In this document: positions 41,929 through 47,637 of the stretch, piece by piece | Layout of the letters: each line of letters starts with the position of its first letter | How positions within the stretch are numbered: position 1 is the stretch's first letter | Origin: Acidimicrobiales bacterium | Lineage (GTDB): Bacteria > Actinomycetota > Acidimicrobiia > Acidimicrobiales > SZUA-35 | DNA length: 64,000 nt | Direction: 5' to 3' | Assembly: GCA_020629695.1 (NCBI GenBank) | Contig: JAHDCV010000001.1 | Span: 52,591-116,590, forward strand | Notes under the pieces: generated by a model | Seen by the model: the letters and a program-made list of their open reading frames with translations, nothing else | The model's database searches: none | Told to the model about the DNA's origin: nothing | Translations under genes and position numbers: made by a program

Positions 41929-43296
41929 TCAGTTCGGGGCGAGCACGCCGCGCGCCATCTCGGTGTAGCTGTCGAGCTGGTCCGAGAGCGCCTCGGACGA
42001 GGCGGGTTTGCCGAAGCGGTACCCCTGGGCCAGATCGACGGCGGTCGAGCGGAGGACCTCCGCCTGTGCATCGGTCTCGACTCCTTCGGCCACGACGTAA
42101 CAACCGAGGTCGTGGGCCAACCGGGTCAACCCGTTCACGAGGATCCGATCCTCGTCGGCGAGGCCGAGGCCTCCGATCAGGACACGGGGCAGACGGACCA
42201 CGTCGAAGCGGCAGCGCCGCAGCAGGTCGGCCGAACCGAAGCCCAGGCCGAAGTCCTCCAGGGCGATACCGACACCTTCGGTCTTGAGCGGGGCGAGCAC
42301 CGGCCAGAGGCTGGCGATGTGGGGTCCGGCGGTCCGACCGTTCAGGTCGAGCAGGAGCTGGGTCGGCCGGAGGCCGTACTGGTCGAGCACGCTCAGCACC
42401 TGGGTCCGGAACTCCGGCGACAGGACGAACCCGACGTCCAGGTTGATCGCCCCGAGCAGGCTCGGGTTGCCGAGCCGGCGGGACCAGACGCTGATCTGGG
42501 CCGCGGTCTCACGCAGGATCCACAGATGCAGTGGGACCGAGACGGGGGACGAGCGCAGCACATCGAGGAAGGCGCCGGGGCGCACCAGTTCGGCACCGAG
42601 CGGACCACCGTCGGGATCGAGCCATCGGAGCATCGACTCGAAGCCGATGATCGTGCCGGACGTCATCGAGACGATCGGTTGGAAGTGCAGCTGGAACTCG
42701 TGGTTGTCGAACGCTCGCTGGAGGCGCACGGCCATCACCTCGGGGCGAGCGCGGAACGACAGGGTGTCCAGCCGGACGGCGACTTTGTCGCCGTCGCTGT
42801 AGCGGGCCTCGGCGAGCGAGCTCTCCGCATCGAGCATGAGGTCGCGGTGCGTCGCGTCGGGGGACGAGGACACCCCGCCGATGGCCAGGGTGATCGGCAC
42901 ACTGAAGCCGTCGAACGGCATCAACGGCGGCACGACGGCGAGCATCTCGTTGGCGACCTTGCGGACTTCCTCGGTCGTCAGCAGGCCCGGCCAGCAGACC
43001 GCGATCTCCGACCCGACGTATCGGGCGACGGTGCCGCGCCCGCCGATCGTCCTGACGAGCGCGTCGCTCAGACGCTGGAGTACGGAGTCACCGACGGCCG
43101 AGCCGTAGGCGGTGTTGATCTGTGCGAGGTTCGAGATCCCGATGAGGAACACCCCGAACCGGTCGCCGTTGCGACGCGTCCGGTGCAGCTCCTCCTCGAT
43201 CAACGCCTCGAACTGCCACCGATCCGGAAGGCCGGTGAGTGGGTCGAGCGTCTGCTCGATGGTCTCGTTGTCCTGTTCAGTGGGTCGACGGAACAC
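41929..43296 (-). CDS. GGDEF-EAL protein with degenerate motifs
   Basis: DPLTGLP, RYVGSEI, GFESMLRW, EDFGLG, AEGVET. Confidence 0.88.
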   Translation of the reverse strand: MFRRPTEQDNETIEQTLDPLTGLPDRWQFEALIEEELHRTRRNGDRFGVFLIGISNLAQINTAYGSAVGDSVLQRLSDALVRTIGGRGTVARYVGSEIAVCWPGLLTTEEVRKVANEMLAVVPPLMPFDGFSVPITLAIGGVSSSPDATHRDLMLDAESSLAEARYSDGDKVAVRLDTLSFRARPEVMAVRLQRAFDNHEFQLHFQPIVSMTSGTIIGFESMLRWLDPDGGPLGAELVRPGAFLDVLRSSPVSVPLHLWILRETAAQISVWSRRLGNPSLLGAINLDVGFVLSPEFRTQVLSVLDQYGLRPTQLLLDLNGRTAGPHIASLWPVLAPLKTEGVGIALEDFGLGFGSADLLRRCRFDVVRLPRVLIGGLGLADEDRILVNGLTRLAHDLGCYVVAEGVETDAQAEVLRSTAVDLAQGYRFGKPASSEALSDQLDSYTEMARGVLAPN

Positions 43297-44822: not shown

Positions 44823-46025
44823 ATGCGGGGAAAGCACCGAACCGGACGGCGTGCCGCGGGCGCGGCGATGGTGACGACGGCCCTGCTTCTGGCCGCCTGT
44901 AGCGCCGCCGACGGTGCCGACGTGGACGTGGCCGTCGCGACCTCCTCCCCACCGACGGTTCCCGAGACCGTGGCACCGACGTCGTCGACCTCGACCACGA
45001 CCGAACCGTCGACGACCACGACCGAACCCACGACCACCACGGCACCGCCGAACTTCGCCGACACCTATGAACTCGCCGCCTCCGGGGTCTTCCGGGTGGA
45101 CGCGACGTTCTGCTCCGGATTCGGATCGCAGGGCACGGCGTTCCGTGTCGGCGAGGACCTCGTCCTCTCGGCGGCGCACGTGACCTCCGACGCCGACATC
45201 GCCGCCCTGAGCCGCGACGACGGCACACGCTTCGACGCTGACGTGGTCGCGATCGACTATCTGGCCGACCTCGTCCTGCTCCGGGTCGCCGACGGCCTCG
45301 ACGGCCATGTCTTCGAGGTCGGCGACGACGGGATCCGCGTCGGTGACGAGGTCGCCGCACTCGGCCATCCCTCGGGCCTTCCGCTGACCTTCACCTCGGG
45401 CCGGTTGAGCCGGATCGGCGCCTTCTCCGGCGACATCCGGAACCATCAGACCGACACACCGATCAACCCCGGCAACTCGGGCGGGCCGCTGATCGACGAG
45501 TCGGGCCGCGTACTCGGGGTCGCGAGCTGGAAGCTGTTCGACACCGAAGGGCTGTCGTTCGTGGTCGCCGCCGACGAGATCCTCGAGTTCGTGTCCGAGC
45601 AGCCGGCGGCCGATCTCGAGTTCGTCGGATGTCGCCAGTTCGAACTCGACCCGACCGATCTCCTGGCCGTGGTGGAGACGCGGTTCGTGGAGTACTTCGA
45701 TCTGATCAACGCCGGCCGGGAGGGCGACGCCTTCGACGGCTATCTGTCGCAGCGGCTGACCGACGTGCAGAGCCGGGAACAGTTCGTGCTGGATCACTCC
45801 ACGACGATCATCAGCAACCTCGAGGTGTGGTCGGTCTGGGAGATCGACGAGGACACCGCCGGTGCGCTGGTGGCGTTCCGGTCGGAGCAGTCGGCCGAGT
45901 TCGGGTTCGAGGGTCAGACCTGCACGGACTGGTCGCTGAGCTATCGCCTCGTCGCATCCGACATCGGCTGGCTCATCGACAGCGCGACCAACGAGCCGGG
46001 CAGTCCAGCGGCCTGCCCCGCCTGA
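44823..46025 (+). CDS. trypsin-like serine protease lipoprotein
   Basis: Lipobox LAAC, Thr linker, SAAHV, DLVLL, GNSGGP; extra C-terminal domain. Confidence 0.88.
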   Translation: MRGKHRTGRRAAGAAMVTTALLLAACSAADGADVDVAVATSSPPTVPETVAPTSSTSTTTEPSTTTTEPTTTTAPPNFADTYELAASGVFRVDATFCSGFGSQGTAFRVGEDLVLSAAHVTSDADIAALSRDDGTRFDADVVAIDYLADLVLLRVADGLDGHVFEVGDDGIRVGDEVAALGHPSGLPLTFTSGRLSRIGAFSGDIRNHQTDTPINPGNSGGPLIDESGRVLGVASWKLFDTEGLSFVVAADEILEFVSEQPAADLEFVGCRQFELDPTDLLAVVETRFVEYFDLINAGREGDAFDGYLSQRLTDVQSREQFVLDHSTTIISNLEVWSVWEIDEDTAGALVAFRSEQSAEFGFEGQTCTDWSLSYRLVASDIGWLIDSATNEPGSPAACPA

Positions 46026-46141
46026 AACCGGCTCGCAACAACACCGAGCCGGGCAGTCCAGCGGCCTGCCCCGCCTGAAACCGGCTCGCAACAACACCGA
46101 GCCGGGCAGTCCAGCGGCCTGCCCCGCCTGAAACCGGCTCG
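45992..46141. repeat. 53-bp-period tandem repeat, three palindromic 44-bp cores
   Basis: CGAGCCGG..CCGGCTCG cores start at 45992, 46045 and 46098, joined by identical CAACAACAC. Confidence 0.95.
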
Positions 46142-46155
46142 TCGTGGGTGATCCC

Positions 46156-46335
46156 TCAGGCTTTGAGCGCGACGAGCGCCTCGCGTACGGGCACGGGCTG
46201 GCCGTCAGCGAGGAACTGGACGTTGCCGTTCTTGAGCATCTCGGCCTGCTCGTCCCGGGTGAGCATCTTCCATTCGAGGATGGAGCCCAGCACGAACCCT
46301 CCCTGTCGGCGGAAGGCCACCTGGTCGACGGTCAC
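46156..46335 (-). CDS. 59-aa hypothetical protein coupled to amt
   Basis: GTG overlaps the amt TGA (GTGA); MTVDQVAFRRQGGFVLGSILEWKMLTRDEQAEMLKNGNVQFLADGQPVPVREALVALKA; GC-rich third positions; not in the ORF track. Confidence 0.7.
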   Translation of the reverse strand: MTVDQVAFRRQGGFVLGSILEWKMLTRDEQAEMLKNGNVQFLADGQPVPVREALVALKA

Positions 46336-47600
46336 AGAAGTGCTTCCAACTCATCCGAGGTGAGCACTTCGCGCTCCGCCTCACGTTCGACTCGGTTGGC
46401 GATGCTCGAGCCACGCAGCTCTTCGTTGGGCGAGACCCGCAAGCCGAGGAAGCGACGGAGGAGGCCGGCGACGATCAGGCCGCTGATGATCACGAACCCG
46501 CCCGAGGCGAGCAGACCGACGACCTGGATCTGGATCTGATAGAGGAAGCCGTTGTCGAATGTTCCGGCCGGAGCCACGAACGGCACGGCGAGCGTGCCGA
46601 GGCTTCCGGCGACGAGGTGCACGGGGATCGCGTTGAGGGCGTCGTCGACCTTGGCGGTGTTGAGCAGCCAGTTCGAGGAGATCATGTAGACCGCACCGGC
46701 GACCCCGCCGAGGACGATGGCTCGGGGCACGGTGGCGACATCCGCACTCGCGGTGATGGAGACGAGGCCGGACAACGCTCCGCCCACCATGGGGTCGATC
46801 ATGTCGGTGCGGCGGCCCTGTCGGGCCCATGCCCAGAAGAAGGCGCCGACCAGACCGGCACAGGCAGACAGGTTGGTCACGAGGATGATCCGTGGCACCG
46901 ACGCGCTGAGTGCGAGCGTCGATGCACCGTTGAACCCGAACCAACCGAGCCACAGCAGCATCGTGCCCAACACGGTGAGCGACGGGTTGGTCTGCTCGAA
47001 GTCGCGGGGCACACCGTCGGAGGAGAAGCGGCCGAGGCGGGGACCGACCATCAACACACCGACGAGGGCGAAGGCGCCACCCGTGACGTGCACGACGGTC
47101 GAGCCGGCGAAGTCATAGAACCCGAGCGCCGCGAGGAAGCCGACCGACTCACCCGACAGCAGCCCACCCCACGTCCAGTGACCGACGATCGGGTAGACGA
47201 TCGCACCGAGGGTGAGGGTCAGGATGACGTAGCTGGAGAACGAGATGCGCTCCACGAGCGAACCGGACACGATCGTGGCGGTGGTGCCGGCGAAGGCGAG
47301 CTGGAACACCATGAAGGTGTACGGGTTGATCGACCCTTCGGCGGTGGCGATCCCGTCGAGCGCACCGAAGAAGTTGGAGAGTCCGATCAGCCCACCGACG
47401 GAGTCGCCGAACATCAGGGCGAAACCGAACATCGAATACACGAGACCGACCAACGCCCAGTCGATCGCGTTCTTCATGGCGACAGCCACGGCATGGGCTG
47501 GCCGGGCCTGTCCGACTTCGAAGAGCAGGAAGCCCGGCTGCATGAGGAACACCAGCACAGCGCCCGTGAGCACCCAGAGGTCGTCGGAAGTCAGCTCCAT
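46332..47600 (-). CDS. amt: ammonium transporter (Amt family)
   Basis: MQPGF, FQLAFA, HWTWGG, DFAGSTVVH, WFGFNGAS, DDALNAIPVH, LRVSPNEE. Confidence 0.95.
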   Translation of the reverse strand: MELTSDDLWVLTGAVLVFLMQPGFLLFEVGQARPAHAVAVAMKNAIDWALVGLVYSMFGFALMFGDSVGGLIGLSNFFGALDGIATAEGSINPYTFMVFQLAFAGTTATIVSGSLVERISFSSYVILTLTLGAIVYPIVGHWTWGGLLSGESVGFLAALGFYDFAGSTVVHVTGGAFALVGVLMVGPRLGRFSSDGVPRDFEQTNPSLTVLGTMLLWLGWFGFNGASTLALSASVPRIILVTNLSACAGLVGAFFWAWARQGRRTDMIDPMVGGALSGLVSITASADVATVPRAIVLGGVAGAVYMISSNWLLNTAKVDDALNAIPVHLVAGSLGTLAVPFVAPAGTFDNGFLYQIQIQVVGLLASGGFVIISGLIVAGLLRRFLGLRVSPNEELRGSSIANRVEREAEREVLTSDELEALL

Positions 47601-47610
47601 GGCTCTGCCC

Positions 47611-47637
47611 ATCGGCACAATCGATCCCGAGTTTGAG
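47611..47637 (-). promoter_or_regulatory. putative FliA/WhiG (sigma28)-type promoter of amt
   Basis: CTCA-N17-GCCGAT, 10 nt upstream of the ATG. Confidence 0.55.

Follow-up and report, generated by a model that had tools for sequence, protein, structure and literature searches.

An amt gene with an atypical end and a small gene behind it

The window, which is the whole 64,000-nucleotide stretch of Acidimicrobiales DNA analysed here, carries on its reverse strand an amt gene whose stop codon overlaps the start of a short second gene, hereafter called the partner gene. The features are as follows.

46332..47612, reverse strand: 426-aa membrane protein of the Amt family (PF00909, E 1e-95), on its receptor-related (N1/N2) branch
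47229..47540, reverse strand: N1/N2 ammonium site and switch residues Q25, F28, E32, K47, N48, D51, T113, S116 and Y128, by alignment with Sd-Amt1
46428..46445, reverse strand: residues 390-395, the GLRVSP segment that follows the final transmembrane helix and is predicted to make the main contact with the first hairpin of the partner
46335..46370, reverse strand: EVLTSDELEALL (residues 415-426), an acidic amphipathic helix at the C-terminus that is predicted to tether the small partner
46156..46335, reverse strand: partner gene, 59 aa, a small alpha/beta domain of no known family, its GTG start overlapping the Amt stop (GTGA)

The start of the Amt may instead be the second ATG, at 47600. Its stop codon occupies 46332-46334 and is preceded directly by the codons of the 12-mer (46335-46370), so that the C-terminus runs from LRVSPNEELRG through a charged linker to EVLTSDELEALL and the stop. 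The first-pass annotation had claimed that this linker and terminal peptide replace the usual GLD..H ending, and the translation of 46332-47612 bears this out. Indeed, the other two Amts of the genome end in GLDVSEHG and GLDLSEHS, showing that the GLD..H ending is missing from the 426-aa protein. The GLRVSP columns are invariant or nearly so in alignment A5, which was chosen for tailed Amts, and its count of 110/114 thus describes the motif and not its frequency.

The Amt stop codon is bridged without a gap by contigs from three DNA runs of two studies, one of which includes possible source samples. The stop is thus no assembly frameshift, and we rejected the alternative of a single frameshifted gene comprising both Amt and partner. 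At position 46390, the three DNA runs have T against the A of the window, which would replace a linker valine by aspartate; the two closest homologues also have aspartate at this site.

Between the partner gene and the protease gene converging on it, a 53-bp unit is repeated 2.8 times with 100% identity (45992-46141). The repeat covers the protease stop codon and has inverted arms in each unit. It is unique to this site in the genome, and in one run its contig depth is raised about threefold. The GGDEF-EAL gene located 3 kb downstream of the Amt (41929-43296, reverse strand) was not counted as part of the module, since its GGDEF motif is degenerate and it is only 25-28% identical to, and not the ortholog of, the gene found beside sister loci.

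The small domain follows one clade of Amts in several phyla

The 59-aa partner gene was absent from the first-pass annotation of the window. AlphaFold2 modelled its product with a pLDDT of 94 as a hairpin, two helices, a hairpin, and a helix. The best sequence match to solved structures was weak (E 0.21), as was the best fold match (Z 3.5, rmsd 3.6 over 46 residues), which does not show a new fold, and the fold searches gave no clear structural match for either the small domain or the long type of partner described below. In addition, no Pfam or NCBIfam family was common to more than two of 135 partner members, and no description was found in the literature, where subscription papers were mostly out of reach. 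A profile of the partner, run against 1.84 billion proteins, retrieved 162 representatives, many of which have a length of 60-90 aa. The clusters of ten representatives that we looked up were unnamed or hypothetical, except for one TetR/AcrR protein.

We then located the domain in genomes. Among 88 family genomes, the partner profile matched 21. The family and order searches together gave 25 distinct hits with E<1e-9, each of them directly behind an Amt of the same clade; three order-level hits with E of about 0.008 were treated as noise. A GTDB scan with a pattern for this clade returned at least 119 matches, 80 of which were loci with DNA. Among the GTDB matches listed, 23 of the 36 bacterial loci have the domain next to the Amt or fused with it, the groups being Actinomycetota, Bacteroidota, Myxococcota, Pseudomonadota, Bryobacterales, and Sericytochromatia, and 0 of the 44 archaeal loci have it. 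The partner thus follows the clade Amt in at least five phyla. As a control, we examined 80 metagenome Amt loci picked regardless of the domain. The sole clade member among them had the domain, while the other Amts gave 0 of 79, with at least 300 bp of downstream sequence available in 69 of these 79 loci. A genome-collection scan with alignment A3 confirmed nothing.

Searches for the domain within longer proteins initially gave just one likely chimera and the L082 fusion. These blanks were false negatives, since the later genome search found many fusions. Thus, a wider domain profile matched 7 of 301 genomes in a phylum sample centred on Myxococcota and 17 of 251 in an order sample centred on a Flammeovirgaceae genome. 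The 28 hits comprise ten single proteins with Amt and domain (seven genomes, order sample), two with Amt, domain, and SpoIIE, nine copies behind an Amt, including one that is frameshifted and was dropped, and seven without an Amt within 1.5 kb, one of them a PilZ fusion and another a copy in front of a PilZ gene. In view of the last seven, the domain either serves other purposes as well or works in trans. In total, 13 ORFs combine Amt and domain in one protein, and two of these include a SpoIIE phosphatase as well. L304 is fusion-like and was dropped for a shifted reading frame in its tail. One Muproteobacteria sequence combines Amt and domain with a weak FHA match, and a domain-TetR fusion is encoded head-to-head with its Amt. 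Since the 12 order-level fusions look closely related, they probably represent one or two origins. Three genomes hold tandem copies of the Amt-domain fusion (L306/L318, L308/L319, and L309/L317).

In one branch, the partner is about 200 aa long. Beyond the small domain, these long partners (L004, L008, L010, L011, L039, L047, and L059) contain a second, C-terminal domain of some 120 aa, in which Y, L, D, L, and W residues are invariant. It folds confidently, with a pLDDT of 92, but has no match in Pfam and no clear one in the fold searches. The gene following the tail-less clade Amt of L087 (5200-5613, forward strand) may begin with a very divergent small domain (E 3.1, not counted).

The tail is a conserved acidic helix and its FliM-like letters are local

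The first-pass annotation had likened the Amt C-terminus to the peptide of FliM and FliY that binds phosphorylated CheY, and had proposed a receiver-docking helix on a transporter. The C-terminal helix of CheZ is a further comparison for CheY-P binding. We thus ranked all 12-mers of the gene-like ORFs, the tail itself included, against FliM N-terminal peptides taken from fetched loci. As a result, only five and three of 1.7 million 12-mers scored as high as EVLTSDELEALL against the peptides of L189 and L191, respectively, while 1277 did so against a third (L193). Furthermore, among 4274 gene-like ORFs, the Amt alone carries [LIVM][STD]xx[DE][LIM]xxL[LM] in its last 15 residues, a pattern that was picked after the tail had been seen. 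For this one copy, the claimed likeness to FliM therefore exceeds chance against two of the three FliM peptides.

The alignment of homologous C-termini, which had been suggested as a check, gave a divided answer. Among the 120 best homologues, which by source name include Actinomycetota, Bacteroidota, and Myxococcota, 86 carry [ED][LIM]xx[LM][LMIV] and 64 have the full capped form. The strict form E[IL][DE]xL[LM] was detected in only four of the 120, and the FliM form L[ST]QxE[IL]xxL[LM] in none. Only two of 114 homologous tails score as high as this copy against the two FliM peptides, with the median at half of its score, and the consensus of the tailed copies reads [LI][DST][DE][DE]ELxxL[LM]. 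The tail is thus conserved as a helix, and the letters specific to FliM are not. Judged from these alignments, the conserved feature is an acidic amphipathic helix, of which the FliM-like spelling is a local extreme.

We also compared the occurrence of the tail with that of the partner. A single regular expression recovered the tail from 28 of the 35 Amts whose short partner is encoded separately, and visual inspection showed a comparable helix in six of the seven others. The same expression matched none of eight Amts with a long partner, none of ten distinct fusion linkers, and one of ten Amts without a detected partner. These counts leave out L077 (broken), L117 (cut at a contig end), and L069 and L122 (unparsed), although L069 has the tail by eye. 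The correlations reflect roughly four or five independent events and not 63 loci. Judging by the eight tail-less Amts with a long partner, the tail is not needed to keep the partner. It tracks the small downstream protein and not the chemotaxis genes.

A chemotaxis receiver is an unlikely partner of the tail

EIDALL is the CheY-P site of FliM and FliY according to excerpts of PMC9126983, and the Amt tail shares with this peptide the character of a short acidic amphipathic docking helix and, in this copy, a close match of letters. It differs in its C-terminal position, in a family consensus that lacks the Q and ID of FliM, in a genome without detected genes for chemosensory arrays, and in a predicted partner that is not a receiver domain. 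We nevertheless weighed the possibility that the tail acts as a mimic of FliM, with a phosphorylated receiver domain as a ligand that replaces the small protein or competes with it. Besides its rank in the top three to five of 1.7 million 12-mers against two of the three FliM peptides, this possibility draws on the flagellar genes of the genome, namely four flagellins on contig C68 and MotA/MotB-like, FliN, and divergent FliM genes on contig C22, and on 37 receiver matches, of which at least two apparently stand alone.

Contig C92, 3207-3710: stand-alone receiver
Contig C97, 38523-39086: stand-alone receiver

However, the FliM pattern is not conserved over the homologues, and the divergent FliM of the genome itself has no EIDALL-type start. 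Profiles detected neither CheW nor MCP in this 96.9% complete genome, although the same kind of search missed its divergent FliM, so that profile blanks can mislead. For the same reason, the FliM counts in the family (3 of 21 module genomes) were considered unreliable and were not used. Given flagellar genes but no detectable CheW or MCP, the motor possibly runs without control by a classical chemotaxis pathway. Within the family, 7 of the 21 genomes that have the Amt-partner module gave a CheW match, versus 19 of the 67 that lack it, and no receiver gene was detected among the neighbour families common to most of the 21 compared loci. Docking of CheY by the tail is thus unlikely, and we regard mimicry of FliM, with binding to a phosphorylated receiver, as very improbable. 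Hence, of the receiver-docking helix first proposed, the docking helix is supported, being conserved across phyla and lying in a predicted interface, while the CheY-type receiver as its partner is not supported, since the FliM letters are not conserved. With 37 receiver matches in the genome, some other receiver may still bind the tail.

The partner is predicted to sit on the Amt C-terminus

The small downstream protein was then considered as the ligand of the tail. A complex model of Amt and partner scored 0.71, while the best of three controls scored 0.00. The 0.71 mark was reached by 116 of 157 solved pairs and 2 of 215 mismatched pairs, counts that are only rough with our own alignments. 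The complex runs agreed in at least 96% of contacts, with a partner pLDDT of at least 86, and recall of a solved complex is unlikely, since no solved relative of the partner was found. The complex model thus supports binding between Amt and partner.

On the Amt side, the predicted interface consists of residues 124-127, 189-198, 386-396, 399, and 405, together with tail residues 414-417, 419, 421-422, and 425-426. The contact pairs with the lowest error join GLRVSP, and not the tail, to the hairpin of the partner. By elimination, we infer that the tail lies in a basic, hydrophobic groove between partner helices 2 and 3, the tail-touching residues of the partner being its remaining contacts on these helices. 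The ten groove positions assigned in this way have a net charge of +3.2 in 29 partners of tailed Amts versus -0.4 in 20 long partners. Likewise, L54 is present in 93% of the partners of tailed Amts versus 30% of the long partners, while the hairpin residues are kept. The groove of eight Bacteroidota-side fusions carries +1 to +2 versus +2 to +3 in separate Amt-adjacent copies, and this small drop weakens the groove-charge test.

These data also bear on the view that the tail is a structural or vestigial helix with no binding to the partner in vivo, being either a remnant of a lost fused signalling domain or folded back on the Amt. In favour of this view, acidic amphipathic helices with an N-cap are of a generic kind, the eight tail-less loci have retained the partner, and one subclade places the start codon of the partner within the tail codons, an overlap that could constrain the DNA. 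However, Amts whose partner is fused or missing lack the tail, and the tail is conserved without such codon overlap in this genome and in Bacteroidota. It also contacts the partner in the complex model, and the groove charge falls with the loss of the tail in the long clade. We therefore give this view scarcely any credence.

The Amt belongs to the receptor-related branch

We next asked what kind of Amt holds the partner. The nearest solved structures are 6EU6 (E 2e-80), which we take to be Ks-Amt5, and 8QJ3/8QPF (E 8e-76), which we take to be Sd-Amt1, with AmtB at about 1e-34. Ks-Amt5 is an Amt-histidine kinase and Sd-Amt1 an Amt-HAMP-diguanylate cyclase (8QJ3/8QJ4/8QPF; excerpts of PMC11152129). 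The ligand set given there for the Sd-Amt1 ammonium receptor (AmR) comprises Q22, E29, N45, D48, T104, and S107, with K44 and Y119, and the residues aligned with this list are all kept in our Amt as Q25, E32, N48, D51, T113, S116, K47, and Y128. Like these receptors, the Amt thus combines the N1/N2 ligands and the Lys/Tyr switch with the pore residues of the Amt/Mep/Rh proteins, namely the Trp/Ser pair (W148 and S231), the Phe pair of the gate (F107 and F227), and the twin His (H175 and H332). In contrast to them, it has no fused C-terminal transducer and ends at residue 426, with a 37-residue tail and a 59-aa domain encoded by a gene of its own, and it has Gly277, nearly invariant in the clade, at the position of Asn269, which narrows the exit of Sd-Amt1 in the account of PMC11152129. 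The N1/N2 residues are also present in the P-II-linked Amt of this genome, and excerpts of the same paper describe some N1/N2-bearing proteins as transporters, plant ones included; the residues are therefore no proof of a sensor.

In a quick tree of 73 Amts, the clade forms one group of 46 rows (SH-aLRT 99), within which the long-partner type is a single derived branch. Five fusions of the Amt-MCP, Amt-kinase, and Amt-GGDEF types join the clade (98), and the P-II-linked Amts fall elsewhere; this tree has SH-aLRT values without bootstrap, and Ks-Amt5, Sd-Amt1, and the order-level fusions were left out of it. The only P-II gene of the genome lies on contig C13, beside a different Amt. Taken together, the Amt-partner pair is likely an ammonium sensor without the usual GlnK regulator.

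The main rival to this sensor reading is a transporter with a non-P-II accessory subunit. Here, the Amt would be a true transporter and the partner an obligate accessory subunit or a GlnK-independent gate in place of the GLD..H region, with the tail as a tether that conveys no signal. This rival would account for the intact pore residues, for a Gly at the exit in place of the Asn of the receptor, and for the absence of an output domain from most copies. Furthermore, the C-terminal region of AmtB, where the partner is predicted to sit in our protein, affects subunit co-operativity according to excerpts of PMC10433425. However, relatives join the domain to SpoIIE, PilZ, TetR, and a weak FHA, and in the tree the clade falls together with sensor fusions. 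The genome also has two other Amts already, one of them beside its only P-II. We thus consider the transporter reading rather unlikely.

Discussion

The real finding of this study is an Amt-partner module with an unclassified domain. Its basis lies in the sequences, which show the N1/N2 residues, two adjacent genes that recur together in several phyla, the fusions, and a tail that is nearly confined to Amts with a separate short partner. We favour, as the probable explanation, that the tail clamps the 59-residue protein on the cytoplasmic face of the Amt, as predicted by the complex model, with the Amt likely serving as an ammonium receptor and the partner as a signal adaptor. In the mechanism that we propose, the two genes are most likely translated together. 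The partner would dock on each subunit, with its hairpin predicted to contact GLRVSP and the loops 124-127 and 189-198. The tail would then fold over the partner as a second anchor, which the fusions would not need. By analogy to Sd-Amt1, ammonium at N1/N2 may shift the C-terminal region, and this shift may move or release the partner or alter its availability. PMC11152129 proposes a displacement of the Amt C-termini upon activation, and it is on this part of the protein that our model places the partner.

The module resembles AmtB-GlnK in its pairing of an amt gene with an adjacent gene for a small cytoplasmic protein, predicted here to bind the cytoplasmic face. However, the partner has only 59 residues, no match to P-II, and a different predicted fold. 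It is predicted on the C-terminal segment, while GlnK plugs the vestibule with its T-loop, and the locus has neither an adjacent glnK nor a GLD..H C-terminal region.

The neighbourhoods of sister loci offer leads to the output. In 4 of the 21 compared loci (L069 and L274-L276), a sensor-less GGDEF-EAL gene is arranged head-to-head with amt, and in eight (L278-L284 and L286), a gene for a DivIVA-like coiled coil, which falls below the Pfam cut-off, takes this position. Neither gene adjoins the Amt in the present genome. A sister branch of the clade (L072, L084, L093, L099, L105, L131, and L137) has no small gene, and its Amts lie among genes for OmpA, Ser/Thr kinase, and SpoIIE and, by eye, roadblock-like genes, a setting that suggests another signalling operon. 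Inspection by eye also revealed another Amt type with an acidic end in L022 and L029, followed by a small gene with a SHOCT-like end.

More tentatively, these arrangements may represent a modular, P-II-independent form of ammonium signalling, in which a receptor-type Amt acts on an undescribed adaptor of about 60 residues that is tethered by a helix or fused and that plugs into SpoIIE, TetR, FHA, or PilZ outputs. In the literature surveyed, the known control of bacterial Amts consists of P-II binding or of a fused kinase or cyclase. The module points to a third wiring, by way of a small protein that is dedicated to the Amt, falls into no known family, and is present in at least five phyla. According to excerpts of PMC11152129, the transducer is disordered in both solved receptors, so that the route from ammonium at N1/N2 to an effector has not yet been seen. 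If our reading is true, bacteria would possess a dedicated family of non-P-II Amt-binding proteins, and the module would provide a small, orderable system for seeing how a receptor couples to its effector. The compact docked partner, the natural fusions of 520 aa, and the Amt-domain-SpoIIE proteins with their assayable enzyme would make this coupling step testable.
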